The notes under the pieces are model-generated. The model was not told the origin of the DNA, did not search any database, and saw only the letters and a program-made list of their open reading frames with translations. The position numbers and the translations under genes were made by a program. Source: an uncultured Alphaproteobacteria bacterium (GTDB lineage: Bacteria > Pseudomonadota > Alphaproteobacteria > ATCC43930 > CGMCC-115725). Taken from it: 64,000 bases of DNA. Position 1 is the first letter of the stretch, and every line of letters starts with the position of its first letter. The stretch covers positions 108,844-172,843 of the forward strand of contig CAWDRN010000016.1 of NCBI GenBank assembly GCA_963804725.1, written 5' to 3'. Of the stretch, positions 20,052 through 40,363 are shown piece by piece.

Positions 20052-20060
20052 AGCCATCGT

Positions 20061-23004: not shown

Positions 23005-23035
23005 AAAACGCCGCCCCCCAGGGGGCATAGCCGTA
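23005..23035 (-). terminator. possible intrinsic terminator (minus strand)
   Basis: The minus strand reads GCCCCctggGGGGC followed by ggcgTTTTTT. The stem is short, so this is tentative. Confidence 0.35.
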
Positions 23036-23071
23036 ACGCCTCCCTAGGTTGTATACCTGCTGCGGGTGGCA

Positions 23072-24068
23072 CACGATGCGAGCGTCGCTACCAGCCGCTA
23101 GCTTATACAGTGACCTTACACGGCTGGATCACCCGAAGGTGTGTCATTTACACAGATGTAAATACAAACTGTGCAATTGACACAGCTGGCAAACACAAAC
23201 CATTTAACGTCAAGCTTCGGCCCAACGCCCCGGTAGGCGTGTGCCAAACGCTGGCGTTCCTCGCACGGGTTGCTGGATCGCGCTTGACGCCGATATCAAA
23301 GGAATCGGACGCTAAGCGCGATCGGCGCGGCCACAATGGCACGAGAGGTGAGTTTGAAGCGTAGCCGGACTGCGGATCGACGGATACGCTGAGCAGATGA
23401 CCCCCCATGAATTGCGCTCTCGGATCGCGCGGTCTGGTGTATCGGGCAAACGCCTGGCGCAGTTGCTTGGTGTACCGCAGCAGAATGTTTCCGGCTAGTG
23501 CACCGGTGTACGGCCTATCCCTGAACATCACGTACCGAAGATCAGACGGATAACCGATAGTCCGCCGCCGCGTACGGAACCGGCCTGGCGCCCGCCGGCG
23601 GATATGCCGCTGTCGCGATCGAAGGGATGGCGCAGCAAAGTTTCCCGGCAACGTCGAGCCCGAGCTGAGCGGCCAGAGGCAACGCATGCGCTGCTGCCGT
23701 CACGGCGATCGGTGCGGCCGTCGCAGCCGGCGCCATCGCCTCGTACCACGGTAGATCGGCCGGCGCCTGCGGCCCCTGTGATGCAAACGCTTGATTTCTC
23801 TGTTTTGCATAACCTGTTGAAAGTGGCCACGCCGATCGACGTAAACCGGGTCTACAGTGCGGGAACCGTGCCGGCGATGGCAACGTCAGTCACTGGTGTT
23901 CCCCTAGGCCGGCGGCCGGCGCTGGCGCCCCAACCGGCCGCGGCACGGACAATAATGGCGGGGCCACGCCACGCCGATTTCGTCGCGCAATAGAACGCGC
24001 GCGTCCGGCCCCTCGATCCGGGCGCCATCATCGTGATGAGGCTGCGCTAAAAAATGCATTCGTGGCGC
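23072..24068 (+). repeat. about 1-kb repeat, copy A (inverted relative to copy B at 39025..40020)
   Basis: Alignable by eye end to end with the reverse complement of 39025..40020, with many substitutions and a few 3-nt indels. Shared ends are CACGATGCGAGCG.. and ..ATGCATTCGTG. Confidence 0.85.
23397..24050 (+). pseudogene. Cro/YdaS-like HTH protein with in-frame TAG codons (copy A)
   Basis: MTPHELRSRIARSGVSGKRLAQLLGVPQQNVSG-TAG-CTGVRPIPEH.. The TAG at 23496-23498 sits where HTH proteins of this type have Trp. A second TAG at 23991-23993 is absent from copy B. 654 nt. Confidence 0.55.
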
Positions 24069-24205
24069 CGGCGAGGGAAGTGGACGTTCCGCAGATGGCC
24101 TGGGTTGGCCGATACCGGAACAGCCGCTCTGGAGCACGCAACGGCAATAAGCAGACGTTCGTTCATGGACATTGTCGCCGGCAGGAAGCGACCCATCCAA
24201 GTCAT

Positions 24206-24410
24206 TGGGCCTCCAGTCTGCCGATCCTGAAAGCCGACCTTCGGCAAGGCCAACCAGCGGCGGCCATGCGCCCATGCCGGCCGCTCCAGACCGCTTGGCC
24301 GTCGCTCGAATGCAGACGTTCGGCCAAGTGCGGCGGTAGCTGCTCAGATATCAGCGGCGCGTGGCAACCGGCTGTAGTTGCTGCCGGCACTTACCGCCGG
24401 TTGGCGGTGG
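24206..24410 (-). promoter_or_regulatory. structured leader R1, cobalamin-riboswitch-like
   Basis: Homologous to 27590..27845. The closing helix is CCAACCGGCGG (24394-24404) with CCGCCGCTGG (24254-24263). A GCCGCTG element and a B12-box-like TCAGGATCGGCAGAC overlap the GGAGG of the downstream ATG at 24205. Confidence 0.4.
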
Positions 24411-24600
24411 AGGCTGTGTGAAGACGCGGTTGCTGCCGGTGCTGCGCCAGAATATGTCAAGAGCGGCCAGGTCGGCACGCGGAACGCTTCGAGGCGGGCG
24501 GTCCTGGAGCCACATAGTTGCTCATTGCCGTGACGGCTCGACGTGTTCACACAATCTCGGTCGAGTTCGGACCTTGATCCGGAATGGGCGGCTCACCCGC

Positions 24601-26694
24601 TCACGGCGCCCGTACCGGACCGATCTGTGGTGTCTGCACCGGCTTTGCCATGCCGTAGAAGATCACGACACCCTGGCCGCCGCAGCGCGTCGAGAGCGCC
24701 TCCTGGGGCTTGCCGATACAACTAGCGATATCCTGCCAGTTGTTCATCACCCAGACACTGCCGGCCGGATCAATCGCGATGTCGGTCTGCATCTGCAGGC
24801 CGCCTCCGACATAGCCGCCGGGTGGTGAAATTTGGTCGCCGGTCATCATGCCAGGTGGACAGGTCTCGGTGCGAACGCCGCACAGCTCCACAATTGGGCT
24901 GTCGGGCATGGCGAAGTTCGAGATCCAGGCGTTGTCGTTGCCGTCCAAAACCACCGCCCACGGCCCGGGTAGGCCACCGCCCATGAAGGGCGAGCCGGGA
25001 TAGGGCGTGCCGTCCGGCCGCAGCAGCGTGACGCTGCCGCTGTCGTAGGTTCCGCCTTGCTGCGTGGACATGGTCGTTGTCATGAAGTCCATGCCGGGCA
25101 CGACACCCCCGAATTTCGCACGGGCATCCATGTCCGCCAGATGGAGCTTGCCCATCAGCCCGTTGCCGAACCGGGTGGTGATCCAGACATTCCCTTGGCT
25201 GTCGACGTTCAGTCCAGCGGGGCTTGCCCCCGAATAAAAGTTCTCGGCCTTGCTGGGATCGGTGGTCGGGAATCGCGTCACGTGCTCGGCGAACGCGTTG
25301 CTCACCCAAATTCGGTTCTGCTGATCGATCGCGAGATGGAACGGTCCCAGAAACGACTCACAGGGCTCCTCGGTCGCGCCCTCGCAAACGATCCGGCCCT
25401 TCGTCAGGTCACCTTTCGGGAAGTAGATCAGCTGGCTCTTCGAGGCGCCGAGGGCCCACACGTCGCCGCTGGGCGTGACGATGATGCCCTGCATGAGCCC
25501 GAGGCGGCCGCCGAACGTGATGCCCTCAGGAGGCGTGAGCGGCTTGCCATTCTTGTCGAACACCGCGATCGAATGGCCGCCATACGTGGTGAACCAGGCG
25601 TTGTCGTGGCCGTCAACGGCAGCGCCGAACGTGCCCCCCTCCATTCCGCCGCCGGTAAAACCGGTGGTGATGGGCGAGAGCGGTTTGCCGTTAGGGGCGA
25701 ACTCGGTGGCATTGCCTTGCCACAGCGCGTCCTGCCCCTGCCAGCCGATCGTGAAATTGTCGCCAAACCAGAGGTTGCCTTCGCTGTCAAACATGGCCTT
25801 GCCACCCGCGCGATACCCACCCCCGTCGAACTTCAGCGGCACGACCCAGGCGCTCGGCGACCAGATCAGGTATGGCATGAACGGAACCGGGCGCATGTTC
25901 GGAGGCTTCGGCTGGCCGTCCATCTTGATAGGTGGAACCGGATAGAACTGATCGAGCAGGGCAAACAACCGTCCGGGTTGGTACCAGGGATAGCGTGCGA
26001 TCAACTCGGCCGCCGTCAGCGTGTCAGTCGGCGCGCTGCCTTTGGGCGGCGCGGCGGCCGCGAACAGCCTGCCGCACGCGTCCTCCACCACGCGCGTGGT
26101 GCAGCCGGCCAGTGCGTCCGCCAGCGTGGCGAAGTTGGCCATCGTCGGCGTCTGGCCGCCGTTGAGCGGCCCCTGAATGGCCTCGCCCCACCCGCCAGTC
26201 GTGATATCGACAAAATTGGGCACATTGCCGGCGGCGATGTGGAGGCCGAGCTCGTGACCCTGTATGGACGGGCCGTCGAGGAACTGTATCGTCGTCACGA
26301 CGGAGGCTATGGTGGTGAATTCGTTGACGACGACATGCGACAGCGGATTGCCGCCGAGCACCGACAGTAGGGCGATCGCAGGGTTGTTGCCGCCCTGCTT
26401 GCTGGCGGCGGGAGTCCCGCCTGTTGCGACAAGGTAGAGGATCGAACCAGCGGGAGTTTGGTCCGCGGACACGACGAAACTTCCGTCGGCACCGGTCGTC
26501 GACTGCGCCAGGCGTGCCGGTGCGTTCGAGCTCGCGGCCCACAGGCTCACTGTCGATCCGGCAACGGCCTTGCCGCCCGCCTGGACCTGTCCTTCGACCC
26601 GTACGGCAGCTTCAGCCGGGCTGGACGCCCAGCCGAGTAATCCTGCCACTATCAGCAGCACGAATATTCCGCTCGCGCGTCCGCAGATGCGCAT
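24601..26694 (-). CDS. secreted repeat protein (carboxypeptidase-regulatory-like N-domain plus NHL/beta-propeller-like repeats)
   Basis: Signal peptide MRICGRASGIFVLLIVAGLLGWASSPAEA, a strong GGAGGAG before the ATG at 26694, and repeated G-x-hydrophobic-W-hydrophobic-x-N/D blocks. Confidence 0.6.
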   Translation of the reverse strand: MRICGRASGIFVLLIVAGLLGWASSPAEAAVRVEGQVQAGGKAVAGSTVSLWAASSNAPARLAQSTTGADGSFVVSADQTPAGSILYLVATGGTPAASKQGGNNPAIALLSVLGGNPLSHVVVNEFTTIASVVTTIQFLDGPSIQGHELGLHIAAGNVPNFVDITTGGWGEAIQGPLNGGQTPTMANFATLADALAGCTTRVVEDACGRLFAAAAPPKGSAPTDTLTAAELIARYPWYQPGRLFALLDQFYPVPPIKMDGQPKPPNMRPVPFMPYLIWSPSAWVVPLKFDGGGYRAGGKAMFDSEGNLWFGDNFTIGWQGQDALWQGNATEFAPNGKPLSPITTGFTGGGMEGGTFGAAVDGHDNAWFTTYGGHSIAVFDKNGKPLTPPEGITFGGRLGLMQGIIVTPSGDVWALGASKSQLIYFPKGDLTKGRIVCEGATEEPCESFLGPFHLAIDQQNRIWVSNAFAEHVTRFPTTDPSKAENFYSGASPAGLNVDSQGNVWITTRFGNGLMGKLHLADMDARAKFGGVVPGMDFMTTTMSTQQGGTYDSGSVTLLRPDGTPYPGSPFMGGGLPGPWAVVLDGNDNAWISNFAMPDSPIVELCGVRTETCPPGMMTGDQISPPGGYVGGGLQMQTDIAIDPAGSVWVMNNWQDIASCIGKPQEALSTRCGGQGVVIFYGMAKPVQTPQIGPVRAP

Positions 26695-26940
26695 GTATCT
26701 CCTCCCTGGCAACGGCAAAGGTGTGGCTGGCCCAAAGACGCACGGATGCTTGACACGAGCGGTCTGCATCACTTGCTCCTAAATGTTTAGAAAAAGGCGT
26801 TCCGTCGAAGGGAGGGTGAGAACTACCGCATCGCCGGCTTTCGTGGCGTGCAGCCGGTGCAGCAAGTGCGGCGCCACCTTCATGTCACTTCGCGGGTTAA
26901 GGGGTGATGATTACCCCCAGACGCCGACTCGGGTAAACAT

Positions 26941-27345
26941 TCAACGGTAACCAACATCAAAGGCTTCGGCATCGAAGGCTCGTTTCTCCAATGATGCGTC
27001 TACCTGGTCCTCGCTGGCGATTTGCCGAGTTAGTACGTTTGAGCGATATGTGGCATAGGCCTGCTGGCTGCCAAAATACACGCACCCGCAGATGGTCGGA
27101 TCACCATAGACATAGACGGTTCTGTCGTCTCTGAAATGACGCACGAATTTGTGTGGCGGCAGGCTCTTCAACGCAGCAAGACGTCGAGGAGTGTTCGCAG
27201 GCTGGGCGACAAATCCTGCCTCAACAAGCATATCTTCTTTGCTTTGCACGTTCTGGGCGTTTTGTGTGTTTGGGACGCTCGACTGACATGCCGAAAGCAT
27301 GAGGCAGAGGGCAACCGCTACACCAATCATCGGACGATTGATCAT
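26941..27345 (-). CDS. lipoprotein of unknown function
   Basis: Lipobox LMLSAC after MINRPMIGVAVALC, and a purine-rich RBS. Confidence 0.6.
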   Translation of the reverse strand: MINRPMIGVAVALCLMLSACQSSVPNTQNAQNVQSKEDMLVEAGFVAQPANTPRRLAALKSLPPHKFVRHFRDDRTVYVYGDPTICGCVYFGSQQAYATYRSNVLTRQIASEDQVDASLEKRAFDAEAFDVGYR

Positions 27346-27517
27346 TTCCGTTCTCCCCTCTCTATCGCGAGACCATTGGCTTGTAAGCGCGCAGGGATCC
27401 GCAGACCCAACATCGTTCGGTCTGATCCTCGCAGCTGGCGCCTTCGGACCAGGCACAAAAACGCAGCGTGGCAATCAATCTAGCTACATTGTTGCCATCA
27501 TTATTCGTGCCGCAATA

Positions 27518-27589: not shown

Positions 27590-27845
27590 CCACTTTGTTA
27601 GTCCAATGGCAAGCGTCGTCGGAACGACAGCCGCCGCCCATGATGCGGCTGTCCGGTTTTCGGCATCTCGACTGCAAAGCGGACGGTCGCAAATCCACCC
27701 GCTGCGGACTTCTGAGCAGAGACTGACACGCTTGGGTGAACGTCCGCATTCGAGTGACGGCGAGGCGGCCTGGAACGACCACCATGGGCGCCGAGCGGCC
27801 GGTACCGCCGATGCTTTCGGCCGGTCTTATAGTACCTTGCACTGC
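27590..27845 (+). promoter_or_regulatory. structured leader R2, cobalamin-riboswitch-like and apparently complete
   Basis: Closing helix GCGTCGTCGG (27613-27622) with CCGCCGATGC (27805-27814), 9 of 10 pairs. Perfect 9-bp hairpin GACAGCCGC/GCGGCTGTC (27626-27653). GGTCGCAAATCC core and B12-box-like ATAGTACCTTGC. It points into the 3' end of the polymerase gene. Confidence 0.4.
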
Positions 27846-27866: not shown

Positions 27867-30126
27867 CTACTCACGGGGTAGCAATGGCATAAAATCCGGC
27901 TGCGCCTCGAGCAGCAGGTTTTCGTCGATCGTTTCGAACTCGCTGCCGTCTCCGGCGATTTCGATAAGTCTGTCGAAATCAGCCGGTTTGTAGCCTTCGC
28001 TCTCTGCGAATGGCGAAGGAAGCAAAATAGGGTAAGTCACCAGGCAGCCGTCGTCATCGAGCCGGACGCGCATGGCGTCGCGTTTGCTCCGCCATTCGAA
28101 GCTCATCTGGCGCGTCTCGACTCTCCATCTTCCGGCTAGCGAAGGCTTGCCCCGGGCGAGTGCGAGCCGGCATCCGTAAAACACCCGGATCTTGACCGGG
28201 ACCGAGGGGATGAGCTGCCGGTCACGAAGCATATTTGCGATGGCGCTGGGCTGACGCAGCTTTGCGGTCCACTCAGCAAACATCCTTTGAAACTCAGGCA
28301 CGGCATCGCCGATGAACGAGCGCGGCGCGCCGCGCGATTTGAGCGATGCCTGTATCGGATGGCGACCAGTAAACGCCGGGCTGCGCTATGAAGAGATCGG
28401 GCCAGACTTTTTCTTCCCATTGTCCCAGGCCTTCGCCGATATCGAGCGACAACGGCCGGGTGCTGAATACCGCGTCGGTCGCCAGCATAACTATGGCTTC
28501 GGGATCCTGCCCGACGGCTTCGATGAGTCGCGCTCTGGTCATCGCAGTGACGAGCCCGGCCGCGACCACATCGTGATAGGGGCCGCGTCCGGTACGCTGC
28601 GCCATCTTGCCGTACAGCGAAGCCAATCCGAGCTTTAGCGGATAGCCGCGGGTTGCGGAACCGATCCGGCTGCGCTCGTCGTACAGCGCTGGCACCCAGT
28701 CAAACATCCGGCAATTACACTCGCACCGGGCGATCCACAAATCGCGGACCGCGATCATGTTGGTGCCGAGCCAGCGTCGGGCCGCTGCAATTTCGCATGA
28801 CCAGTACCAGCCGGTTCCTTGCACCGGCCAAAACAGGCCGCCATTATGCCGGAACGGCAGGCCGCACCATGGTCCGGCGGGGTGCGTGAAGGCGATTTTT
28901 GCGAGATAAAGCCCGCTCTCGGGCAAACGGCTGGCGCGCGGCCGGTGAAGCCATCGAGTATGCAGCGGGCACGGCAGCTCGGGCATTCCGGCGGGATAGG
29001 CGCTGTTTATGTCATATTGGTAAACCAGCCTGGCGAACGGACCGCCGATCGGTCCGATGCGCGACACTTCGGTACGGCCACCATAATAGGCGAAGTTGGC
29101 GGCGGCCTCGAATTCAGGATCGCGTTCCGGCCGGCGAACCCTTGCCGGGCTCCGGTTTTTGCCGGGCTGGCGTCCGGCAAGAGCCGCTGTCTCCTTCGCG
29201 GTGAGAGGACGCTTCGGTATACCGTGGTGATCCAGCAACGCTGCCGCGAGCCATCCTGCGCCGCTCCATTGCTTCGGCGAGATGCCTGCCGTGGTACAGA
29301 CCGTGCGGAATTCCGTCATCAGCATAGCCGCACAGCGGCATTCCAGCTTGCAGTATTCGATGATTTCCGGAGTCAGCTCGGAGAATTCGTCGCGATGCTC
29401 TTTGTTTCTGGTGATGAAGGCGCGTTCCTCTTCGCTGCCGATGTTCCATTTCTTGACCGCTTCCGTAAACGAGCACTGGAAAAAACCGAATGCCTCGTAA
29501 ACGGTTCGGGTTGAGCCTTTGATGATGCCCGGTCTCGGCTGGCTGCGATCGACGCGGGCGACCCGGAAATACTGGCCTTGCTGATAGATGAGCGCGTAGT
29601 CGCCCCAATAGGTATAGCACGGGCCGTTTTTGCCTTGCGGCGGGTCGAGTATCCGCTTCAAGGTCGGGATCTTGCTGATCCCGCGTAAGATCTGATTTGC
29701 GTCGTAGCCGAAGTAAAAGCCGATGAGTATCGGTTCGGCGGGAAGCGACAACAGGAATTCGAGACAATCGCGAACGGACAAGGGCTTGCCGTCGCAGTGC
29801 TTAACGTGTTCCTCGCCTGCGGTCGGTCCTGAAGCAGCCATCAACAAATAGGGTTGGCGTCCCAGGTGATCGGTTCCGGCGCCTTCGCCGTCGATCGCCA
29901 TAAACGGGCGAAGCTTCGTTCGGGCATGGTTGCGTTTGCGTTCCTTGGCAGCCTCGCGCTGCTCTGGGGTCTGCCGTTTACGCGCTTCCTGCTGGCGGAT
30001 ACGCGCTCGCTCACGCACACGCTGCCGCCGGAGTTCCAGAAGACACTGGTAATCTGCGCCGCGCGCCCGGATCATTTCGTCAATACGCGCTCTGATGACA
30101 CGATCGATCATCGCCGACACTTCCAT
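27867..30126 (-). pseudogene. family-B DNA polymerase (protein-primed / primer-independent-like) with one frame break (or an assembly indel)
   Basis: ExoI FMAIDGEG, ExoII FYFGYDANQIL, ExoIII EYCKLECRC, motif A YDINSAYPAG, motif B KLGLASLYGK, motif C LATDAVF, then LKSRGAP after a frame switch near 28340-28375. ORFs 28294..30126 and 27867..28301 join. The span is 2260 nt, one more than a multiple of 3. Confidence 0.75.
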
Positions 30127-30224
30127 CCCTGAGGGCTTATGGCTGCGGCTTCCGGCATCTGATACTCCTTACGCTCTCGCTCGCCGCCGGCTGCCGGCCC
30201 GCGTGCTGTAATAAAGTCTCCAGA

Positions 30225-30569
30225 TCATGCTGCGGTTCTTGCCGGTAAATGGGTCAGGCAGATCTGACGGAACGCTACCGGATAATCCAGAAGCACCTTC
30301 AGCAACTGGTCTTGCCGGCCGAGCGAAAGACTATTGAAGGCATCGCGATCGCGTTCGTTAAGCTTGAACCGGTAGTCCTGCCGTGCCCTGATTGCCGTGA
30401 GCCCGCGTTCTGCTTCCGTGGCCCGCCGGTTCGCACGCCGGCGTACTTCCGGCTTCTTCGTCCGGCCCGCCGTCGCCCGCGCCAGCACGGCCCGGCGCGC
30501 CAGCTCGGCTCTGTGCAATTGCGCATAGCGCTCGCTGCCAGGTCGAAAGGGGAACCGTTTCCGCGCCAT
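30225..30569 (-). CDS. small basic hypothetical protein immediately upstream of the polymerase
   Basis: 114-aa Arg/Lys-rich ORF in operon position between the SSB-like gene and PolB. I recognised no family. Confidence 0.4.
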   Translation of the reverse strand: MARKRFPFRPGSERYAQLHRAELARRAVLARATAGRTKKPEVRRRANRRATEAERGLTAIRARQDYRFKLNERDRDAFNSLSLGRQDQLLKVLLDYPVAFRQICLTHLPARTAA

Positions 30570-30720
30570 TGCCGGCTACTCGGCTCGATTGCTCCGGCCG
30601 GATTGCTTGTGTCTTTGGGGGGAGTCGGCTAGAAGAATCATGACTTTTCTCCAAAGTCACTTGCACTCGCATCTCCCCCGGCCCGTCGGCGGTGCCGGGG
30701 GAGACTTTCATACCTCTCGC

Positions 30721-31195
30721 TCAGAACAGAATTTCGTCGCTGTCGAGATCGTCTTTCGGCGACGAGCGATCGGTCCGACCGTTCGATCGGCCGCCTTGTT
30801 CGGGCGCTGCTCCGACGCGGCGAGGCGATGCCTGCGCGGGCCCGCCGGCGGCGGCCGCGCGCATCGCGACCGCGCCCGGCATGACGCGGATGCCGCGCAC
30901 TTGCTCGCCACGAAAATTGACCCACACAGAATGAATGCGGATGGGCCGCCCGATCCAGGCATCCGTGTCGTCACCGAAGGCCTTGCGCAAGGCGTCGCGA
31001 TTGCCCTTGTTCAGGGGCAGCCTACGCTGCCGCGACCTCGCCGTTGCTGTCGCAAAGCTCGAGGACGAGCTTTTTTGCCGGATCGTCGCGGCCGATGGTT
31101 TCCGCCGAGACCGTGCTGATGACCCAGCTCTCGGGCTGATCGCCGAAATCGGCGGCGGTGAAGTAGGGCGAATTGTCGAAGTCACTTGCACGCAT
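30721..31195 (-). pseudogene. SSB-like small DNA-binding protein with an acidic C-terminal tail and one frame break (or an assembly indel)
   Basis: GGAG-ATG start at 31195 (MRASDFDNSPYF..KKLVLELCDSNGE). After a shift near 31022-31035 it reads ..LPLNKGNRDALRKAFGDDTDAWIGRPIRIHSVWVNFRGEQVRGIRVMP.. and ends DDLDSDEILF, which resembles the SSB tail DFDDDIPF. 475 nt. Confidence 0.5.
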
Positions 31196-31242
31196 CGACT
31201 TGCTCCTTTTGGTTGATGCTCCAAAAAATCCAAAGTCTTCTC

Positions 31243-31512
31243 TCAAGCGGCATCTTTCGGGCGCCGCCTGACAATGCAGCGCGAGCCGGCAGGCTCGGGA
31301 TCGGACAGGCGCAGTGCCGCCGGCGTCGCCTCAGCAAGCCTTCGGCCCACGGTTTCGACAATGTAAGTGCGCAGCAAGAAGCCGGCATATTCGCTTCGCG
31401 CCGCAATCGGCAGCTTGCCTTCACCGATCCAGATTGAAATACGAGCAACCGTAACGGCGAGGCGCTGTGCCGCCTCTTCGAGAGTCAGAAAACGCGGAAA
31501 ATCTTCGGTCAT
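31243..31512 (-). CDS. excisionase/MerR-type HTH protein
   Basis: FLTLEEAAQRLAVTVARISIWIGEGKLP. AGGAG lies about 12 nt upstream of the ATG at 31512. An alternative ATG at 31584 has no RBS. Confidence 0.55.
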   Translation of the reverse strand: MTEDFPRFLTLEEAAQRLAVTVARISIWIGEGKLPIAARSEYAGFLLRTYIVETVGRRLAEATPAALRLSDPEPAGSRCIVRRRPKDAA

Positions 31513-31660
31513 CGCGGGTGGGGTCTCCTCGACCCGCGAACGTATGCGAGTTTTTACCCTGCGTGGTGCATCGGTGGTGGTCATTTGGTAATTGACCGGT
31601 TGCGGGCGGCGGGGCAGGCTTCCATCGACAAAAAAGAGGCAGTGTTTTGGAGAGATCGTC

Positions 31661-32629
31661 GTGCGCCGGCCTAAGAAACCCAAACGGCTGAGCGAGGCCG
31701 CGCTCCTTGCTTTAACCGGGATTTCACACCGCAACCTAACGCGTCGGCGTCAGCAACGCTTGGTCAAGGCAGTGGAACCCCGCCGCGGTCGCGGACATGG
31801 TGGCGGGCGTGGCACCACACCGCTCGAATATTCGAGCGCGGAAGTGCCGAAAATCGAAGACCTGAAAAGATGGCGCCGAAAATTCAAGAACTCCATCGAG
31901 TGGCGATGGCGTCTGTCACGCGACGGTCACGACGTTGGGATCGCGCCCGATCTTGCCGAAACGCTAAAAGAAACGCTGAATTGGCTAAGAGAGGCATTGA
32001 AGAGGGAGGCGTTGAAGATCGAAACGCCCGCCGACGTCGATGCGATAACCGCGTGCCTTTGGAAGCCGGCGGATATGCCGCGCGGCAATCCGCTACGAAA
32101 AATCTTCAAGGGTCTTAATCCGAAAGAGGCGCGCGACCTGTTGACGATGCTCTTTTGCGTTGTTCTCGGCATCCGGCTGCCGCTGTTCGACGAGCCGAAC
32201 CCCTACCCATTTCAGGTTTTCAAGCGTGTCTTCGGACTGCCGAAAGAATGGCAAATGCCGCCGGGTCTCTTCGACGTTTTCCCTAACATGCACGACCAAA
32301 TTGTCACCGGGCTCTCCAAGGTCACCGCCGAAGAGTTGAAAAGCGCATGGAGAGTGTGCCGGTTTTTAGATCGCGTCCTCAGTGAGCCGGAGATTCCGAA
32401 GCGCGATGTCAAAGTCATCACCAGATCCGGCATTCCTTCACAGCCGATCAAGCTAGCCAGTTTGATGTGGTCGTCGCCGGTCACGCGCGCCGCGACCGTC
32501 GGCCTCATTATCTTCTGGCTGCGTGGGATCAAGTCTGCGCTTGGCAAAAACGACGCGGCTGTCCTCGACCGGTCTGTCGCTCCCATCTTCAAGTATGCCA
32601 CCTCTGGCGCAAGCACGACGGAATGCTAA
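31661..32629 (+). CDS. hypothetical protein with an N-terminal HTH-like segment, upstream of the Cas1 gene
   Basis: GGAGAG lies 6 nt before the GTG at 31661. RLSEAALLALTGISHRNLTRRRQ. No recognisable family. The stop overlaps or abuts the Cas1 start. Confidence 0.5.
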   Translation: MRRPKKPKRLSEAALLALTGISHRNLTRRRQQRLVKAVEPRRGRGHGGGRGTTPLEYSSAEVPKIEDLKRWRRKFKNSIEWRWRLSRDGHDVGIAPDLAETLKETLNWLREALKREALKIETPADVDAITACLWKPADMPRGNPLRKIFKGLNPKEARDLLTMLFCVVLGIRLPLFDEPNPYPFQVFKRVFGLPKEWQMPPGLFDVFPNMHDQIVTGLSKVTAEELKSAWRVCRFLDRVLSEPEIPKRDVKVITRSGIPSQPIKLASLMWSSPVTRAATVGLIIFWLRGIKSALGKNDAAVLDRSVAPIFKYATSGASTTEC

Positions 32630-32637
32630 GGCGCGCC

Positions 32638-34107
32638 ATGCACGCCGACAACACGATCTACACCCGCATCAAGAACGGCATCGTCGTCGTCAGCGGCACT
32701 GGTCCGGCGATCCATATCGACGGCAAACGCCTCGTCATCCGCGACGGGCCGCTCGAAACACCACCCTTGCGCCTAACGCGCGCGGAAGCCCATCGCCGGC
32801 TGCGGCATATCATCGTCGTCGGCGATTACGGCGGATACGTCAGCTTCGACGCGCTGCGCTGGCTGCGCGACGCCGGCGTAGGATTCTCACAGCTTGATTG
32901 GAACGGCACCGTCATCGCTACAAGCCCGAGCCCTGATTTGCCGGCACTGCGCAGGGCGCAGGTGCTGGCCTGCAGCGGTGCCATTCCGGGAGCCGTCAGC
33001 GCCATCACGCGCGAAATTTTGCGCGTCAAGCTTACCGGGCAAGCCCGAGTGGCGAAGATGCTCAGCTCGGTCGAAGGTATCACTCCAAAGCAATCACTCG
33101 CTGCGAGCGCTGCCATCGCCGAGCTCGCTGCGGAAGTAGCACGCGAAACGGACATCTCTCGGATGCTGATGTTCGAAGCTCATGCTGCGGGGTTTTACTG
33201 GCAGATCTGGGAAGATGTCCCCATCAGGTTCGCGCGGCGCAACCCGAAGCGTCTTGGGCCGGGCGGACGCTGGCAGCCGGGCCGGCCCGATCCATGGCTG
33301 GTATTCGGTCCAAGGGCGTCACTCCTGACCGGGCAACCCTACCGGGCGACAACGCCGGGAAATGCTGTCTTGAACTGGCTATATGCGATCTGTCAAACCG
33401 AACTGACGATTGCCCTTCTTACCGCCGGCATCGATCCTGGTATCGGGCTCTTTCATGTTGATATGCCAAACCGGCCGTCACTGGCTCTCGATGGTATCGA
33501 AGCGCTGCGGCCCTATGTCGATCTTTGGCTGTTCGGCTATCTCGTCAATTCGGTCTTTGCCAACCGCGACTTTACCGAGTTGCGCGATGGCGAGGTCCGG
33601 CTGACGCACCCGCTCAATGCACACCTTGCCCATACCGCGGCGCTGTGGCGTCAAGTGTGCGAGCCTGTCGCGGACTGGCTCAAAGAGAGCTTTATAGGCG
33701 CGGCAGAGACATCGCTTGCCTATACTCGGCGATCACTCAACCAGAGCAGCCTCTCTGGCGCTGGAGCAGTACTTCGCGAGGGGCGCAGCATAGTGTCGGC
33801 CGCCCAACCGCGGCACCGCGCAAGGGGGCAAGGCGTTGCCTCGCCCGAACGGTCGCGGCAACAGGGGCGTCCGGCGGTCTCGCCGCTAGCGCGGGTGCTG
33901 CCGACCCTGGCTTCTTCTTCGCGGCCGGCGCCGGGTTCGTGGGGGCCGAACCATTGGTTCGGCCGGCTCACGGATGAACCGGTTCCACGTATATGCCGTG
34001 AGTGCGGGCGCGCGATGCTGCGAATCCACCGCGTATTTTGCAGCCTTAAATGTGCTGTGTATAACTATCGAGCGCAGAACCGTTCCTCATCGGGCCAGGC
34101 CGAATAA
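32638..34107 (+). CDS. cas1: Cas1-family integrase (casposase-like, stand-alone)
   Basis: N-domain IIVVGDYGGYVSFDALRWLRDAGVGFSQLDWNG. Helical domain FEAHAAGFYW (Glu), PGNAVLNWLYAICQTEL (Asn), GIDPGIGLFHVDMPNRPSLALDGIEALRPYVD (His, Asp, Glu). This aligns with E. coli Cas1 E141/H208/D218/D221. The C-terminus has CRECG...FCSLKC cysteines. An alternative ATG is at 32623. Confidence 0.8.
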   Translation: MHADNTIYTRIKNGIVVVSGTGPAIHIDGKRLVIRDGPLETPPLRLTRAEAHRRLRHIIVVGDYGGYVSFDALRWLRDAGVGFSQLDWNGTVIATSPSPDLPALRRAQVLACSGAIPGAVSAITREILRVKLTGQARVAKMLSSVEGITPKQSLAASAAIAELAAEVARETDISRMLMFEAHAAGFYWQIWEDVPIRFARRNPKRLGPGGRWQPGRPDPWLVFGPRASLLTGQPYRATTPGNAVLNWLYAICQTELTIALLTAGIDPGIGLFHVDMPNRPSLALDGIEALRPYVDLWLFGYLVNSVFANRDFTELRDGEVRLTHPLNAHLAHTAALWRQVCEPVADWLKESFIGAAETSLAYTRRSLNQSSLSGAGAVLREGRSIVSAAQPRHRARGQGVASPERSRQQGRPAVSPLARVLPTLASSSRPAPGSWGPNHWFGRLTDEPVPRICRECGRAMLRIHRVFCSLKCAVYNYRAQNRSSSGQAE

Positions 34108-34124: not shown

Positions 34125-34214
34125 CCGGTTTGGGTGGTTTTGCGACGGTCCGCTGCCACGCTGCTGGCGAGAAAAGCCGACGTTCCGCCGATGGCTAGGA
34201 TTGGCCGAAAGCGG
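34125..34214 (-). promoter_or_regulatory. R3, a 5' fragment of the same structured leader family, cut off next to the Cas1 stop
   Basis: The minus strand reads CCGCTTTCGGCCAATCC..ATCGGCGGAACG..GCGGACCGTCGCAAAACCACCC. The last segment matches R2 GCGGACGGTCGCAAATCCACCC at 20 of 22 positions. The 3' half is absent. Confidence 0.35.
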
Positions 34215-34485
34215 CTGGACAGCTTCGTGGAATGGCCTATCGAAAAGAAGAAGCCAACGCCGACCGGCCGCTGGTCCGCCTGCATCAGCTTACGCGTTAC
34301 GTTGTCGATGGCGGCGATGTGATCGGTATCAACGGCGCGGCGCAAGCCGAACGTCCACGCCAGCAAGGCTGTGCCCAGCAAGACGGGAAAGTCGCGAAAG
34401 CTGGGAAGCGCCCAAACCCAGGCTACGACATTGAGGGCGTCACCGTCGAGTGAGGCAGCCGAGCCATATGGCGACTGCGAAGCTT
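34215..34485 (-). pseudogene. NiCoT (HoxN/NixA-type nickel/cobalt transporter) N-terminal remnant
   Basis: ..FRDFPVLLGTALLAWTFGLRRAVDTDHIAAIDNVTRKLMQADQRPVGVGFFFSIGHST, then homology stops. There is no in-frame start codon upstream. Confidence 0.6.
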
Positions 34486-34534: not shown

Positions 34535-35116
34535 CTAGGGAAGACAGGCACCGGCCAACTTTGCCCCGGATTCCGAGGACGGCAAGTATTTGAGGAACTT
34601 ACCCGTTCCGTCCATCACATAGATCAGGGACGAATGATCTATGAAATAGGTGCCGTCTGGCCCGTCGCGCCGTTGGTAATAGACGTCGAACTCCTTGGCG
34701 ACCTTCGCGGTGGCCGCCACGTCGCCCACCAAACCTTGGATGCGCGGGTCGAATGCCTTGACGTAGTTCGCCATCACTTTCGGCGTGTCGCGCGCCGGAT
34801 CGATGGAGATGAACAGCGGCACGACATTTTTCGCCGCTGGGCCAAGCTTTGCCATTGCTTGAGAGATGTTGTTGAGAGCGGTCGGGCATGCGTCCGGGCA
34901 ATAGGTGTAGCCGAAATAAATCAACATCGTCTTGCCGCGGTAAGTCTGATCGGTCACCGTCTCGCCAGTGTTGGCATCGGTCAACTTGAATGGCCCGCCA
35001 ATGTTGGGGGACGCGGCGGAGGGCAGCACCAGCCACACGACCGCAACTGTCGCGGCAATCGCCGCCAGCATGGCAATGGGTACCAGCAGAATGCTGTCCC
35101 GGAACTTTTCGGACAT
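34535..35116 (-). CDS. SCO1/SenC-family copper chaperone
   Basis: N-terminal membrane anchor, YFGYTYCPDACP (CxxxC) and FIDHSS motifs. Confidence 0.85.
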   Translation of the reverse strand: MSEKFRDSILLVPIAMLAAIAATVAVVWLVLPSAASPNIGGPFKLTDANTGETVTDQTYRGKTMLIYFGYTYCPDACPTALNNISQAMAKLGPAAKNVVPLFISIDPARDTPKVMANYVKAFDPRIQGLVGDVAATAKVAKEFDVYYQRRDGPDGTYFIDHSSLIYVMDGTGKFLKYLPSSESGAKLAGACLP

Positions 35117-35528
35117 GGCGGCACACTACACCGCACCAGTGGCCCCGCCAATCGACACGCTTGCGAGGATTTGGTCAGCAAACAGCGAATTTAGGTATGC
35201 TGACCGGTTCCGCCGCGCTTTTTCTGCTTACTAGGCCTGGCCCGAAGCAGCCCCTGCAGCTTCGGCGGTGACGTGGCCGTTAAATCTAGTTAAGCGGCGT
35301 CTTGGTCTGCGACAAATTGTCTATATTTTGGGTTGTTGCGAGCGCGCGCCATTTTGGGCAATGCTGCGAGCGACTGGAGGAAAACCATTGACCAACGCCG
35401 GGAGCGGTCATGGTCATCATTTGGGGGGGACGCGCGTCATACCGTGCGCAGCTGTCGATACTATTCGTTCGTTACTTCGAATTAGGAGATCCTCGAAAAG
35501 CTGGTTCACGGCGTGCGCGGCACTGGCG

Positions 35529-35837
35529 ATGTTCGCGATCGTCGTGCAGACGATGTTGCCGTTCGTGCTCGCGGCCGACATCGCCGCCTCGGCGAACGCG
35601 ACGCCGATCTGCCATGCTACGACGAGCGACGAACAAAATAACCATCAACCCGGCCCGGCTAAATCCTGTCCGATCTGCGCGGCGCTCGCGGCAACAATCG
35701 CCGCACCCGCGCCGACGGCGCCATCGATCCCGCTGCCGCACATTGTCGTCGCCCGACTGACCGTCGCGCTCCACGAGAAAGCGGCGGATATTTCCCTGCC
35801 GCGTTCCTACCGCTCTCGCGCACCCCCCCTCGCGTAA
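35529..35837 (+). CDS. DUF2946-like small protein with Cys/His motifs
   Basis: Hydrophobic N-terminus then ICHA...CPICAALA. This type of protein often accompanies copper genes. The start is uncertain (ATG at 35529; the ORF is open further upstream). Confidence 0.5.
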   Translation: MFAIVVQTMLPFVLAADIAASANATPICHATTSDEQNNHQPGPAKSCPICAALAATIAAPAPTAPSIPLPHIVVARLTVALHEKAADISLPRSYRSRAPPLA

Positions 35838-35903
35838 TACCAGGACAATTGAGTTTTCGCTGGCTCGCTTGCGGGCCGCTATTCAATTTCATGGGAGTTG
35901 CGC

Positions 35904-36842
35904 ATGTCCCGACTTTCCGCACGGGCCGCGTTGGTCGGCCTGATGATCGCCGCCGTTCCCACAGCGCATGCCTTGGCGCATGCCGTGTGTGGCAACCGCG
36001 TGTTTCCGCCGACCCTGATCATGGACGATCCCGGCATGAACGACGAAGCGTCGTTGCCGACGATTCAATACGCGCCAATCCCGGCCTCGGCCGGAACGCC
36101 TTCCGGCTCGAGCACGAGCTGGGGTTTTGAATGGGATAAAACCATCTTCTCTGCCGGCAACGGCAACAATGTCTTCTACAATGTGTTCGGCTTTGCCATC
36201 AATGGCGATTACATCACCCGGCGCGGCGCCGGCGAGGATCTGAACGGCTGGGATAATTTCACGCTAACCCTCAAGGATCAGTTCTATTGCCTTCCAGAGC
36301 ACGAATTCATGATGTCGGCGGGCGTCATTCGTGACTTGGGCGCGACCGGCTCTGGACAATTGTTGCGGGCGAGCATCATTCCGTACACGAGCAGCACCGC
36401 ACCGACCTGGTATTTCGGCAAGGGCTTCGGCGATCTGCCGATCGGTCCGCTGCGCGCCTTCGCGGTCACGGGCGAGCTGGGTTACGCCATTTCGGATGCG
36501 CCCAGCGTGTTGCCCGGCGAATGGGAATACTCGTGGTCGATCCAATATTCGATGCCCTACCTCACACAGCACGTAGAGGCGGTGCCAATCCCGGAATTCT
36601 TCAATCACCTGATCGCGCTGGTCGAGTTCTCCTACGCGGCGCCGACCGACCAACCCACCACCGGCGTCATCGCGCCCGGCATTTTCTATGAGGCCGAGGC
36701 GTGGCAGGTCGGCGTCGAGGCGGTCATTCCCGCCAACGCGGCGACGCGGGCATCGCAGGGCACCGGCTTCATCGTCCAGTTCCATGTTTTCCTGGACGAC
36801 CTCATGCCCAATTCGCTCGGCAAGCCTTTGTTCAGCTTCTAG
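35904..36842 (+). CDS. putative outer-membrane beta-barrel protein
   Basis: Signal peptide MSRLSARAALVGLMIAAVPTAHA, alternating amphipathic strands and a C-terminal ..KPLFSF. Confidence 0.5.
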   Translation: MSRLSARAALVGLMIAAVPTAHALAHAVCGNRVFPPTLIMDDPGMNDEASLPTIQYAPIPASAGTPSGSSTSWGFEWDKTIFSAGNGNNVFYNVFGFAINGDYITRRGAGEDLNGWDNFTLTLKDQFYCLPEHEFMMSAGVIRDLGATGSGQLLRASIIPYTSSTAPTWYFGKGFGDLPIGPLRAFAVTGELGYAISDAPSVLPGEWEYSWSIQYSMPYLTQHVEAVPIPEFFNHLIALVEFSYAAPTDQPTTGVIAPGIFYEAEAWQVGVEAVIPANAATRASQGTGFIVQFHVFLDDLMPNSLGKPLFSF

Positions 36843-36851
36843 GGGGCGGTC

Positions 36852-37202
36852 ATGCGAAAGCTGGTCCTGGCCTGTGCCGCGCTGGCGATTGCCGGCCCGG
36901 CGTGGGCGCACGCCTTTCTCGACCATTCGAGCCCGGCGGTGGGCGCCACCGTGCCGGCGCCGAAGGAGGTCTCGATCTGGTTCACCGAAGAGGTCGAACC
37001 AGCCTTCAGCCGCATCGAGGTCACCGACGGCGCCGGCAATCGGGTCGATGACGGCGGCACGCATATCGATGCCGCCGATCACGAGCTGTTGCACGTCGCG
37101 GTGAAGCCGCTATCGCCGGGAGCCTACAAGGTGACGTGGCACGTCGTGTCAGTGGATACGCACCATACCCAGGGCGATTTCACCTTCACCGTCGCGCCGT
37201 GA
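36852..37202 (+). CDS. copC: copper resistance protein CopC
   Basis: Signal peptide then HAFLDHSSP..; YKVTWHVVSVDTHHTQGDFTF. Confidence 0.85.
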   Translation: MRKLVLACAALAIAGPAWAHAFLDHSSPAVGATVPAPKEVSIWFTEEVEPAFSRIEVTDGAGNRVDDGGTHIDAADHELLHVAVKPLSPGAYKVTWHVVSVDTHHTQGDFTFTVAP

Positions 37203-38011
37203 ACCTGACGCTGGTCGCCATCCGCGCGGTCTACTTCTTCGCCGCCCTGCAATTGTTCGGTTGGCTCATCTTCGATTTGTTCATCGGACAAGCGGGGTGG
37301 GGACGGCGGGCGGCGCCACTGGCGGCCGTCGCCCTTGTGGCGATGACCGCGTGGCTGGCAATCGAGACGACGCTATTGAGCGGCGAGCCGCTTTCCGGCG
37401 AGACACTCGACATCGTGTTGCGTGAGACGCAGTTCGGCATGCTGTGGATTTGGCGCGCGGTGCTCCTCGTCGCTCTGTTAGCGTTGACCTTATGGCGGAT
37501 TCGGCCAGCGACGTTCGTTGCGGCGATCGGCGCCGCTTCGGTTCTAATCCTCACCGCGGCCGCCGGGCATGGCGGCGCCGACCGCAGCAGCATCCATTTG
37601 ACGGTAGACGCGATTCATCTGCTGGCCGTCGGCTCCTGGCTCGGCGGCCTCGTGCCGTTCGCCGCCGCGATGCGCCGGGCCGACGCCGGCGCAATCGCCT
37701 GGCGTTTCTCGACGTTGGGCGTGATCAGCGTTTGCGTCATCTTGGCAACGGGCGCGATCAACGCCTGGTTCATGGTCGGCAATATCCCGGCGCTGATCGG
37801 CACGCCGTACGGCCGACTGTTAATCGTCAAGATCGCATTGTTCTGCATCATGGTGTCTATCGCGGCGATCAATCGCTTTCGCCTGACGCCGCGCGGCGCT
37901 GTCGCGACGCTGTGCCGCAACGCGCAGATCGAGACGGCGCTCGGCGTCGCAATTGTGATGATCGTCGCCGCACTCGGCACCATGCCGCCCGCATATGGGG
38001 TACAGAATTGA
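37199..38011 (+). CDS. copD: copper resistance protein CopD (membrane)
   Basis: The GTG at 37199 overlaps the copC stop (GTGA). Multiple transmembrane segments, with HLLAVGSWLGGL and RFSTLG motifs. Confidence 0.8.
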   Translation: MNLTLVAIRAVYFFAALQLFGWLIFDLFIGQAGWGRRAAPLAAVALVAMTAWLAIETTLLSGEPLSGETLDIVLRETQFGMLWIWRAVLLVALLALTLWRIRPATFVAAIGAASVLILTAAAGHGGADRSSIHLTVDAIHLLAVGSWLGGLVPFAAAMRRADAGAIAWRFSTLGVISVCVILATGAINAWFMVGNIPALIGTPYGRLLIVKIALFCIMVSIAAINRFRLTPRGAVATLCRNAQIETALGVAIVMIVAALGTMPPAYGVQN

Positions 38012-38217
38012 CCCCGTATCACAGCCATCCGCGTCCGCAGGCGCGGTAATTGGCGCAGCCGGCACAAACGAGCCCGGCTACGCGCCCAGCGCAGGCGACA
38101 GCACTTCTTACGGCGCCAATTTCACAAGGCCGCAGCCTTCCACCCCGCGCTTCGCGGCCGCTTTGGAAACGAAATACCCAGCCGAGATACCGGCGCAACC
38201 GTAACGAGGAGACCATC

Positions 38218-38658
38218 ATGGTGAAGATCTTTTCGCCGACCGCGGCATTTGTAATCTGCCTCGCTTCCGCCGCGTTGGCACAAAGCGGACCGATCAGCGT
38301 CTCCGATGTCTGGGCCCGCGCCTCCAACGTCTCGACGGGCGCCGTTTATATGACCATCGCCAATTCGGGCGGCACGGACGATCGGTTGGTCGCCGCCCAA
38401 TCGCCGGTCGCGAAAACCGTGCAGCTCCATATTGAGACCAACGATAACGGCATCGTGAAAATGCGTCCCTTGAAGTCGATCGACGTCAAGGCAAACAGCA
38501 AGGCGACCTTGGCGCCAGGTGGCATGCATTTCATGTTGATCGGCCTTGTGCATCACTTGAAGGACGGCCAGAGTTTTCCACTGACGCTGACCTTCGAAAA
38601 CGTCGGCGAAATCCACGTGACCGTCACGGTGAAAAAGGCCGGCTCGATGGGCGGATGA
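38218..38658 (+). CDS. periplasmic copper chaperone PCu(A)C (DUF461)
   Basis: GAGGAG RBS, signal peptide, and the motifs VWARAS, GAVYMTIAN and GGMHFMLIGL. Confidence 0.8.
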   Translation: MVKIFSPTAAFVICLASAALAQSGPISVSDVWARASNVSTGAVYMTIANSGGTDDRLVAAQSPVAKTVQLHIETNDNGIVKMRPLKSIDVKANSKATLAPGGMHFMLIGLVHHLKDGQSFPLTLTFENVGEIHVTVTVKKAGSMGG

Positions 38659-40226: not shown

Positions 40227-40363
40227 ACCCATCACGCTCTAGGACCGCGGATCAACGGTTACGCTGAGCAGATGACGCCATCTAGCCGACGCTCACCCCC
40301 GCCATCGCTCCGCAGATGCGAATACGAAGGTGCCGGCGAGATCAAGCACGAGCAGAAGTAAAC

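Follow-up and report, generated by a model that had tools for sequence, protein, structure and literature searches.

The 64-kb window analyzed here (the whole stretch of DNA, 64,000 nucleotides) is part of contig CAWDRN010000016.1 from an uncultured Alphaproteobacteria bacterium, and positions given without a locus designation refer to it. Positions 27867–34107 carry six open reading frames (ORFs), four on the minus strand and two on the plus strand. A first-pass annotation, made from the sequence alone, described them as a 6.2-kb module in which a stand-alone Cas1 homologue lies beside a family-B DNA polymerase (PolB), i.e. a casposon-like element in a proteobacterium, and suggested as checks a Cas1 phylogeny and a search for terminal inverted repeats (TIRs) and target-site duplications (TSDs) in relatives. 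All six ORFs were found at or very near the coordinates given there.

27867..30126, minus strand: predicted family-B DNA polymerase, phi29/Toil class, with a frameshift at about 28325–28345 (Pfam DNA_pol_B_2)
30169..30569, minus strand: small basic protein, candidate terminal protein, with a frameshift near 30265 (position upstream of PolB, conservation)
30721..31195, minus strand: single-stranded DNA-binding protein (SSB)-like protein with an acidic C-terminal tip, with a frameshift near 31025 (gene position, tip DDLDSDEILF)
31243..31512, minus strand: small helix-turn-helix (HTH) protein, excisionase/MerR-like (sub-threshold HTH_17, Rv2175c_wHTH and excisionase matches)
31661..32629, plus strand: MerR-type winged-HTH protein with a helical C-terminal domain, directly upstream of Cas1 (structure model)
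32638..34107, plus strand: predicted casposase, a Cas1 homologue with a C-terminal zinc ribbon (Pfam, NCBIfam and PADLOC Cas1 matches)

We read these genes as the conserved core of a casposon, i.e. a self-synthesizing DNA transposon, which combines a family-3-type casposase with a phi29-fold, Toil-like PolB. The probability of this reading is put at about 0.85.

The ORF at 32638–34107(+) matches the Pfam family Cas_Cas1 (E = 2.8e-28) and passes the threshold of the TIGR00287 cas1 equivalog (72.5 bits, cut-off 71.7), so the first-pass assignment to Cas1 holds. The residues read as catalytic, E180, H273, D285 and E288 (window numbering), are invariant in 22 aligned homologues. The zinc-ribbon cysteines C453, C456, C468 and C472, with the pattern CxxC...CxxxC, are invariant in the same alignment. 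Most relatives display an extension of about 100 amino acids after the ribbon, which the window protein lacks. The ribbon had been thought unusual; the tail is real, however “Cas1-Zf” or “Zf-Cas1” is already listed for the family-3 casposons AceAut-C1 and NitAL212-C1 in the 2014 supplementary tables (Krupovic et al. 2014). The family contains at least 244 close homologues, and a wider Cas1-Zf profile finds 862 representatives of 50%-identity clusters at E ≤ 1e-30.

Profile scores were obtained against a Cas1 reference set, the supplementary alignment of Krupovic et al. (2014). The family-3 casposases score highest, i.e. AceAut-C1 (229 bits), S. spinosa (154 bits), S. albulus (133 bits), NitAL212 (130 bits) and H. 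marina (92 bits). Family 2 casposases score 77–93 bits, family 1 casposases 42 bits and CRISPR Cas1 proteins 41 bits or less. A neighbour-joining tree of 30 sequences with bootstrap places the Cas1 inside the family 3 casposases. The Cas1 family is monophyletic (100% bootstrap), AceAut-C1 is its sister (84%), S. albulus and S. spinosa Cas1 group with it (100%) and the clade containing all five family-3 references has 97% bootstrap. The top PDB match of the family profile is the Methanosarcina mazei casposase 6opm (E = 3.9e-21), ahead of the best CRISPR Cas1 structure (E = 2.6e-15). Profile scores, tree and best PDB match together assign the window protein to the casposases rather than to CRISPR Cas1, and it is a predicted casposase of the family-3 clade.

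The first-pass annotation reported no CRISPR array, and indeed no CRISPR-like tandem array was found in the 64-kb window, where other cas genes were not profile-searched window-wide. A CRISPR adaptation module would show Cas1 and Cas2 beside an array, and no array was found in the window. In the loci examined the neighbours of Cas1 are a MerR-like ORF and cargo genes. The window thus has a Cas1-family integrase with its catalytic residues conserved and no CRISPR array.

The polymerase was likewise identified correctly at the outset. The sequence at 28294–30126(−) matches Pfam DNA_pol_B_2 (E = 1.8e-8, 34.2 bits, cut-off 25.8). The frame changes near 28325–28345, between ...YWSPSD and ...SLKSRGAPRSFIG, and a KSRG element sits in the shifted frame; intact homologues exist and are about 747 amino acids long. 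The exonuclease motifs are DGEG (ExoI) and YD (ExoII). The polymerase motifs are YDxxSAYP (A), KLxLNSLYGK (B) and ATDA (C), the last having lost its first Asp. KSRG replaces the KxY of PolBs and is nearly invariant across the family.

A tblastn search of 50,697 phage records shows the polymerases of Toil-like tectiviruses of Rhodococcus, Streptomyces and Microbacterium to have about 30% identity over 70% of the length, with E-values down to 1e-55; His2, ABV and PRD1 are far lower. Scored with the family profile, Toil gp07 reaches 273 bits, PRD1 26 bits, the primer-independent PolB (piPolB) of pSE-12228-03 22 bits and phi29 5 bits. The profile found no match among PDB sequences and the fold search alone succeeded: an AlphaFold model of the protein (predicted local distance difference test, pLDDT, 83; predicted template modeling score, pTM, 0.79) best matches the phi29 DNA polymerase (E = 8e-17, template modeling score 0.58–0.63 on the target), with archaeal and eukaryotic PolBs behind it at 1e-10. 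No match was found in 72,556 plasmids by tblastn.

KSRG had been compared to the KTRG motif of piPolBs, the polymerases of pipolins. The resemblance is real; the polymerase however is not a piPolB. It scores 22 bits against piPolB and 273 against Toil, its motif C is ATDA, and KSRG occurs without an evident KH. ETDG and KTRG, which have been described as hallmarks of piPolBs, are found in the Toil PolB too; the resemblance extends to tectiviral polymerases and does not make the window protein a piPolB. From sequence and model, the protein is a predicted phi29-fold PolB whose closest annotated relatives are the Toil-like tectivirus polymerases. It is neither a piPolB nor of the family-3 type, the distinction from family 2 and 3 casposon PolBs being drawn from published descriptions and not from sequence comparison. 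As a separate matter, the annotated start of Toil gp07 (L065:2950–4821, Rhodococcus phage Toil, KY817360.1) seems to have been placed too far downstream, as the in-frame sequence ahead of it, which overlaps gp08, codes for the ExoI motif FLAVDGEG.

Upstream of the polymerase gene is the small basic protein, called at 114 amino acids in the window. Its ORF breaks at about 30265, where ...LLDYP is followed in another frame by SVPSDLPDPF...WRLYYSTRAG, as in intact homologues. In 13 other loci it is conserved just ahead of PolB, with a length of about 137–177 amino acids (most 137–145) and the C-terminal motif YY(S/A)TRAG. No family match was found for it, and comparison with Toil gp08 and gp09 and with the terminal proteins of Bam35, PRD1 and phi29 showed no meaningful similarity. 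Its place in the gene order makes it a candidate for the terminal protein, i.e. the primer of replication.

The next ORF had been labelled SSB-like. Position and the acidic tip favour this label; profile support is lacking, with no Pfam match and one weak PHROG match of unknown function. Intact homologues of 129–144 amino acids with the acidic tip are present at L026:589–1023 and L023:1408–1797. Some family members have another ORF in its place, and canonical SSB genes (PF00436) lie downstream of PolB in L002 and L004. The small HTH protein at 31243–31512 does show matches to HTH_17 and excisionase profiles, all of them however sub-threshold; it is conserved in several loci.

The gene directly upstream of Cas1 encodes 322 amino acids in the window and 312–345 across relatives, and none of its 116 homologues has a Pfam domain. 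It had been called HTH-like, and its structure model (all-helical, pLDDT 83) bears this out for the first 85 or so residues. Only these match solved or viral structures, which are winged HTH domains of the TnrA/GlnR/MerR/excisionase type; the helical C-terminal domain has no match in PDB or BFVD. The possibility that this ORF is a divergent capsid protein was rejected, as the model is all-helical. One homologue, P0315, is from a MAG (metagenome-assembled genome) labelled Bryobacteraceae (Acidobacteriota), which hints at a wider host range or a binning error.

The gene order HTH, SSB, x, small protein, PolB mirrors that of Bam35 (HTH, SSB, ORF3, terminal protein, DNA polymerase). In phi29 the SSB and terminal protein genes are likewise upstream of the DNA polymerase gene. 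No HNH match was found among the six core proteins scanned, no tyrosine or serine recombinase match among the core proteins of the module, and no PADLOC model matched a core protein other than Cas1.

The module is not confined to the window. It was found in seven loci from GTDB species genomes, six of which are MAGs labelled Alphaproteobacteria and one “uncultured proteobacterium”, and in 56 metagenome contigs, taken as soil from their identifiers. One relative of the PolB is labelled Rhizomicrobium sp. The first-pass annotation took the host context to resemble Rhizobiales; the labels on relatives are Alphaproteobacteria or Rhizomicrobium. The order in relatives is PolB(−), small protein(−), variable genes, MerR-like ORF(+) and Cas1(+), with unrelated flanks and with cargo that varies from genome to genome. 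Truncation, frameshifts or interruption by insertion sequences (ISs) affect many of the copies. No relative was found in the 2.9 million viral contigs of IMG/VR or, by DNA search, in plasmids, and no tRNA genes were found in the 64-kb window or in 17 loci.

Family members are 13–15 kb long. The search for element ends in relatives found TIRs and TSDs in two of them, the TIRs starting CCCCC(A/T)GGGAGCACG.

L003, 1512–16576, 15,065 bp (contig CAVYXK010000001.1, GTDB MAG): complete casposon with TIRs and TSD
L004, 1713–14925, about 13.2 kb (contig CAWJFM010000023.1, GTDB MAG): complete element with TIRs and TSD

In L003 the TIRs are perfect over 189 bp (1512–1700 and 16388–16576), and start with CCCCCAGGGAGCACG; a 14-bp direct repeat, AGGTTCTTCGGGGC, adjoins them on either side without mismatch. 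The insertion splits an ORF, and its core genes are all intact. Its cargo consists of a radical SAM enzyme, a methyltransferase and a GmrSD/DUF262-type nuclease, HEC-05-like, which is apparently split into two ORFs. In L004 the inverted repeats start with CCCCCTGGGAGCACG at 1713 and 14925, the terminal motif is CCCCCTGGGAGCACGTCCGTCCG, the 14-bp direct repeat is GGTCTCATAGCTGA, and the canonical SSB gene is directly downstream of PolB. The terminal motif is also present downstream of Cas1 in right-end orientation in L001, L005 and L063, about 3–3.5 kb from Cas1 in the first two, with weaker matches in L006, L007 and L011. A further contig, P0002, has GmrSD and Mrr as cargo.

At least two copies look to have transposed recently. 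Two complete MAG copies with TIRs and perfect 14-bp TSDs identify the lineage, at the family level, as a predicted mobile casposon, which strengthens the first-pass description of a casposon-like element in a proteobacterium. The 6.2-kb module of that description stands as the conserved core; it is not the whole element, which is 13–15 kb in the family and probably about 17 kb in the window.

Several relatives show features of their own. L004 has a serine-recombinase-like ORF at 3719–4294. In L001 (7858–8114, 6099–7053, 12755–12970 and 14529–14741) the full Cas1 gene is preceded by an extra N-terminal Cas1 fragment, the core is interrupted by an IS (DDE_3) and a methyltransferase, and two direct copies of the TIR-end sequence follow Cas1, which suggest repeated insertion or a solo TIR. 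In L070 and L071, which encode a more distant Cas1-Zf (P0383, 365 bits), a 218-aa ORF precedes Cas1 and an N6/N4 methyltransferase and a ResIII-type nuclease follow it, with no PolB within the few kb of sequence. L052:1–6568 (Ga0137420_1444902) is 90.7% identical to its own reverse complement and displays two distant Cas1-PolB modules tail to tail. It was set aside as a probable assembly or read artefact; a hairpin or an inverted-dimer replication intermediate is possible.

The window copy is in a different state, and its features outside the core are as follows.

23015..23051, plus strand: probable left terminus (CCCCCAGGGGGCATAGCC...), aligning from position 1 with the L003 TIR
23072..24051: left long inverted-repeat arm, candidate TIR, 980 nt, pairing with 39041–40020
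24067..24433: relic sequences just inside the left arm, similar to other window segments
24601..27474, minus strand: probable left-side cargo, 723-aa and 177-aa proteins, from their position between the arms
27678..27700, plus strand: 23-bp inverted repeat, left copy, 21 of 23 positions complementary to 34132–34154
27701..27801: conserved non-coding block of about 90 nt downstream of PolB, with copies at 24258–24400 and L007:11399–11470
34132..34154, plus strand: 23-bp inverted repeat, right copy, 25 nt past the Cas1 stop
34230..34381, minus strand: truncated NicO nickel-transporter gene (Pfam NicO, E = 1e-19)
34535..38658: probable right-side cargo, SCO1/SenC, an unknown 314-aa protein, CopC, CopD and PCuAC (Pfam matches)
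39041..40020: right long inverted-repeat arm, pairing with the left arm and lacking the terminal 57 or so nt

The element probably spans 23015 to about 40020, i.e. about 17 kb. This estimate is based on the inverted arms, on their L003-like distances from the core, on an arm end in L009 and on a single terminal motif at 23015; as a boundary it is weaker than the result for the family. The arms are 99% complementary in their outer 588 nt, 81–85% in the inner parts and 91% overall. They lie 3.8 kb from PolB and 4.9 kb from Cas1, as compared with 3.4 and 5.0 kb in L003. A close relative, L009, has the innermost 79 nt of the left arm too, about 0.9 kb past its Cas1 and oriented like a right arm. 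The 13-mer CCCCCAGGG[AG]GCA, with one mismatch allowed and both strands searched, has its only occurrence in the window at 23015, oriented as a PolB-side end should be, and the left arm starts 57 nt further in. The terminal motif was not found in right-end orientation anywhere in the window, and no TSD was found around the long arms.

The right arm abuts the C-terminal remnant of an IS630-type transposase (40021–40225, ...FLPKYSPDLNPIEQ...). The IS630-type remnant as a whole covers 39688–40279, with the C-terminal 70 or so amino acids of the transposase at 40021–40225. A 38-nt inverted repeat (39688–39725 and 40242–40279) brackets it, and its left part is inside the 99%-identical portion of both arms. 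Just inside the left arm, 24258–24433 is an inverted, degenerate copy of the PolB-adjacent 27609–27801. Positions 24067–24124 and 34163–34223, the latter just outside the right copy of the 23-bp repeat, are direct non-coding copies, about 79% identical over about 57 nt. The IS-like 38-nt repeat in the 99% stretch and the relic copies inside the left arm point to rearrangements.

The 23-bp inverted repeat reaches a score found in only two of 300 dinucleotide shuffles (p about 0.007). Fuzzy searches did not find it in other loci, L037 alone having a related right end; in six other loci, local alignments of the ends scored at background level, and no TSD was found around it. As it is not in other loci, and as L003 and L004 have long TIRs and TSDs, it was dropped as a family TIR or element boundary. 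The adjoining 90-nt block (…TCCAGGCCGCCTCGCCGTC.CTCGAATGCGGACGTTC…CTGCTCAGA…) lies behind the stop codon of PolB in the window and behind that of Cas1 in L007. It has no Rfam match, as is the case for the whole 64-kb window, and promoter and terminator scans of it were uninformative.

The proteins on both sides of the core are probable cargo by their position inside the arms. The 723-aa protein has a weak Reg_prop propeller match and the 177-aa protein no family match. With the right-side genes the element most likely carries copper-homeostasis cargo. The NicO match covers profile positions 2–52 of 287; no continuation was found in any frame or elsewhere near the element, and insertion of the element into a NicO gene is thus unsupported, with no continuation on the other side. 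Outside the element (14567–14642, 20897–21001 and 20025–20831), a 23-nt tandem repeat of 4.4 copies and matching inverted repeats about 6.3 kb from each other adjoin an rve-integrase/HTH transposase ORF. They are probably an IS or a miniature inverted-repeat transposable element unrelated to the casposon.

With three of its core genes frameshifted (PolB, small basic protein, SSB-like) and no right terminus left, the window copy is very probably inactive, a decaying relic. The Cas1 and MerR-like ORFs are still intact. Decay had been suspected from frame breaks in PolB and the SSB-like gene, both of which are real; it was understated, as the small basic ORF is broken too, which makes three frameshifts, and the right end is gone. 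None of the three sites is a long homopolymer. Long-read MAG assemblies can, however, introduce frameshifts.

The window has a polymerase gene of its own, frameshifted, with DNA_pol_B_2 match, all Exo and Pol motifs and a phi29-like model; TIRs with TSDs are found in L003 and L004, and the window shows inverted arms, the left motif and the 23-bp repeat, with no TSD. Several points weigh against our interpretation. All protein activities are predictions. The window copy has neither a TSD nor an intact right end, and its outer limits depend on a long inverted repeat, overlapping in part with IS630-like sequence, and on the 13-nt motif at 23015, for which 0.15–0.5 chance occurrences are expected in the window. 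The 23-bp inverted repeat brackets the core exactly and the 17-kb model does not explain it. Many MAG copies are frameshifted or truncated, for which decay and long-read assembly error are both possible. No similarity to known terminal proteins is detectable in the small basic protein. Lastly, a motif C lacking its first Asp, and KSRG in place of KxY, are features tied to the primer-independent synthesis of piPolB.

The following mechanism is proposed for an intact copy. By analogy with studied casposons, the Cas1-Zf casposase would recognise the TIRs and integrate the element by a staggered cut, giving the 14-bp TSD. The MerR-type winged-HTH and small HTH proteins may bind DNA as regulators or end-binding factors. 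The divergent operon of HTH, SSB-like, small basic protein and PolB genes would replicate the excised or looped-out element, the polymerase starting at the TIR ends, most likely with the small basic protein as terminal protein as in protein-primed replicons, and SSB covering the displaced strands. The catalytic activities, the mode of priming, the identity of the terminal protein and the roles of the HTH proteins are those expected from such analogies.

Because of the ATDA motif C and KSRG, protein priming is not assured. The element may be the same casposon with a polymerase that is primer-independent like piPolB and starts de novo at the ends, in which case no terminal-protein role would fall to the small basic protein. 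The same two deviations, as TTDG and KTRG, define piPolBs, KTRG residues are needed for primer synthesis in piPolB, and ETDG and KTRG are present in the Toil PolB as well. In addition, the small basic protein (114 amino acids as called, about 137–145 in most intact relatives) is shorter than known terminal proteins (245–266 amino acids). Terminal proteins are notoriously variable. The profile scores of 22 bits for the pSE-12228-03 piPolB and 273 for Toil, and the lack of any match in 72,556 plasmids, argue against primer independence. The nearest polymerase relatives belong to tectiviruses, which are linear, TIR-bearing, protein-primed replicons, and the gene order fits such replicons. Primer independence is considered unlikely, yet a live alternative.

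A wider form of this idea, that this lineage and the Toil-like polymerases (xTDx motif C, K(S/T)RG) are a missing link between protein-primed PolBs and primer-independent piPolBs, is a speculation that we think improbable. If it were true and the polymerase primed itself at the CCCCC... ends, the lineage would hold the first casposons, and the first elements integrated by a Cas1, that need neither terminal protein nor primase, and K(S/T)RG would mark a much wider primer-independent clade that includes phage polymerases.

A third explanation takes the module for the remnant of an integrated Toil-like tectivirus which acquired a casposase, as with the elements of S. noursei and S. albulus, and lost its capsid genes. 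The polymerase is indeed closest to Toil-like tectiviral polymerases, Cas1 groups with that of S. albulus and S. spinosa (100% bootstrap), and the Streptomyces Cas1 elements have been re-interpreted as Toil-like proviruses. A Tectiviridae-like provirus would display a double jelly-roll capsid protein and a packaging ATPase. No match to either was found among the L003 ORFs scanned (a partial scan; in L004, the SSB gene only) or in the window core. The conserved 312–345-aa ORF is all-helical and not a jelly roll, and IMG/VR, with 2.9 million contigs, contains no relative. L003 (15.1 kb) and L004 (13.2 kb) are bounded by TIRs and TSDs and carry a radical SAM enzyme, a methyltransferase and a GmrSD-type nuclease, or SSB. 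The explanation fits the data poorly and is very unlikely.

The least credible explanation, a domesticated, immobile host system, e.g. for defence or repair in defence islands, with incidental inverted repeats, could draw on the defence neighbours (GmrSD and Mrr in P0002, the GmrSD/HEC-05-like nuclease in L003, the methyltransferase and ResIII nuclease with P0383) and on the intact Cas1 and MerR-like ORFs among decaying window genes, yet it also fits poorly, given perfect TSDs around TIRs in two genomes with one insertion splitting an ORF, flanks and cargo that vary between genomes, many visibly decaying copies ill-suited to a selected host function, PADLOC models that match no core protein but Cas1, and an L003 defence gene that lies inside the TIRs and so is cargo there.

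About 54 casposons in four families and a proposed fifth have been described, most of them archaeal, and one group mentions an unpublished survey. The first-pass annotation knew of no description of this combination. Our searches of the accessible literature agree: neither casposons carrying these genes nor the alphaproteobacterial lineage were found to be described. The data point to a sizeable bacterial casposon lineage living in soil Alphaproteobacteria, in which a tectivirus-type set of replication genes (PolB, putative terminal protein, SSB) has joined a family-3 casposase. The combination bears on the exchange of replication genes among casposons, tectiviruses and pipolins, and the lineage bears on the priming mode associated with the K(S/T)RG motif. 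Since some copies look recently transposed, they offer bacterial material for testing casposition and casposon replication, and their defence or metal-homeostasis cargo means that the elements may also act as gene vehicles. For the window itself the message is more modest, i.e. that of a decaying relic.

Compared with known systems, pipolins (Redrejo-Rodriguez et al. 2017) are also bacterial and self-replicating, have a PolB of the DNA_pol_B_2 class whose motif C is without its first Asp and whose KxY is replaced by KTRG, and often carry defence cargo. They differ in having tyrosine recombinases, integration at tRNA genes and direct repeats, where Cas1, TIRs and a TSD are found here. The piPolB signatures SxTTDG and KH-X8-KTRG are absent from the present polymerase, the core proteins show no recombinase match, and the ends are inverted repeats. 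The family 1 casposons of Thaumarchaeota have a PolB of the protein-primed class and a conserved small gene upstream of polB, the proposed terminal protein. Unlike the present lineage they have archaeal hosts, a distant casposase (42 bits) and insertion into the aEF-2 gene, and a 2021 abstract describes the family-1 casposase as lacking an HTH domain.

The Toil-like proviruses of S. noursei and S. albulus, described in 2018, likewise combine a family-3 casposase with a Toil-like polymerase, and their Cas1 is related to ours (the 100% clade). They are the only precedent found for this pairing and hence the closest. A double jelly-roll capsid protein is reported for these elements, which are considered viruses of Actinobacteria. 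Here no capsid protein or packaging ATPase is seen in the ORFs scanned, relatives are labelled Alphaproteobacteria, and the PolB is only about 30% identical.

The family 3 casposons AceAut-C1, NitAL212-C1 and HenMar-C1 (Krupovic et al. 2014, 2016) belong to the same casposase clade, with Cas1 and a C4 zinc finger. They too have HTH genes, including MerR-like ones, within the element, and in the table order HenMar-C1 and NitAL212-C1 have a MerR-like gene next to Cas1. The TSDs (14–15 bp in NitAL212-C1 and AceAut-C1), TIRs of tens to hundreds of bp, bacterial hosts that include Alphaproteobacteria, the lack of an adjacent tRNA and variable cargo are further likenesses. The published insertions are intergenic, in contrast to L003, which is inside an ORF. 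The family-3 PolB has DNA polymerase delta (3iay) as its top HHpred match and is sometimes fused to an HTH (Krupovic et al. 2014). Family-3 PolBs are called RNA-primed and are related to family-2 PolBs (Krupovic et al. 2016). Krupovic et al. (2014) also list an HNH nuclease gene in AceAut-C1, NitAL212-C1 and HenMar-C1, which adjoins PolB in at least two of them. Here the polymerase is instead a DNA_pol_B_2, phi29-fold, Toil-like enzyme, the core proteins scanned show no HNH match, and there is an SSB or SSB-like gene as well as a small basic protein encoded just ahead of PolB. The casposase clade is thus that of family 3, while the RNA-primed type of PolB and the HNH gene are not found with it. 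The lineage is family 3 by its casposase and differs from it in polymerase class, in the lack of HNH and in a tectivirus-like replication module.

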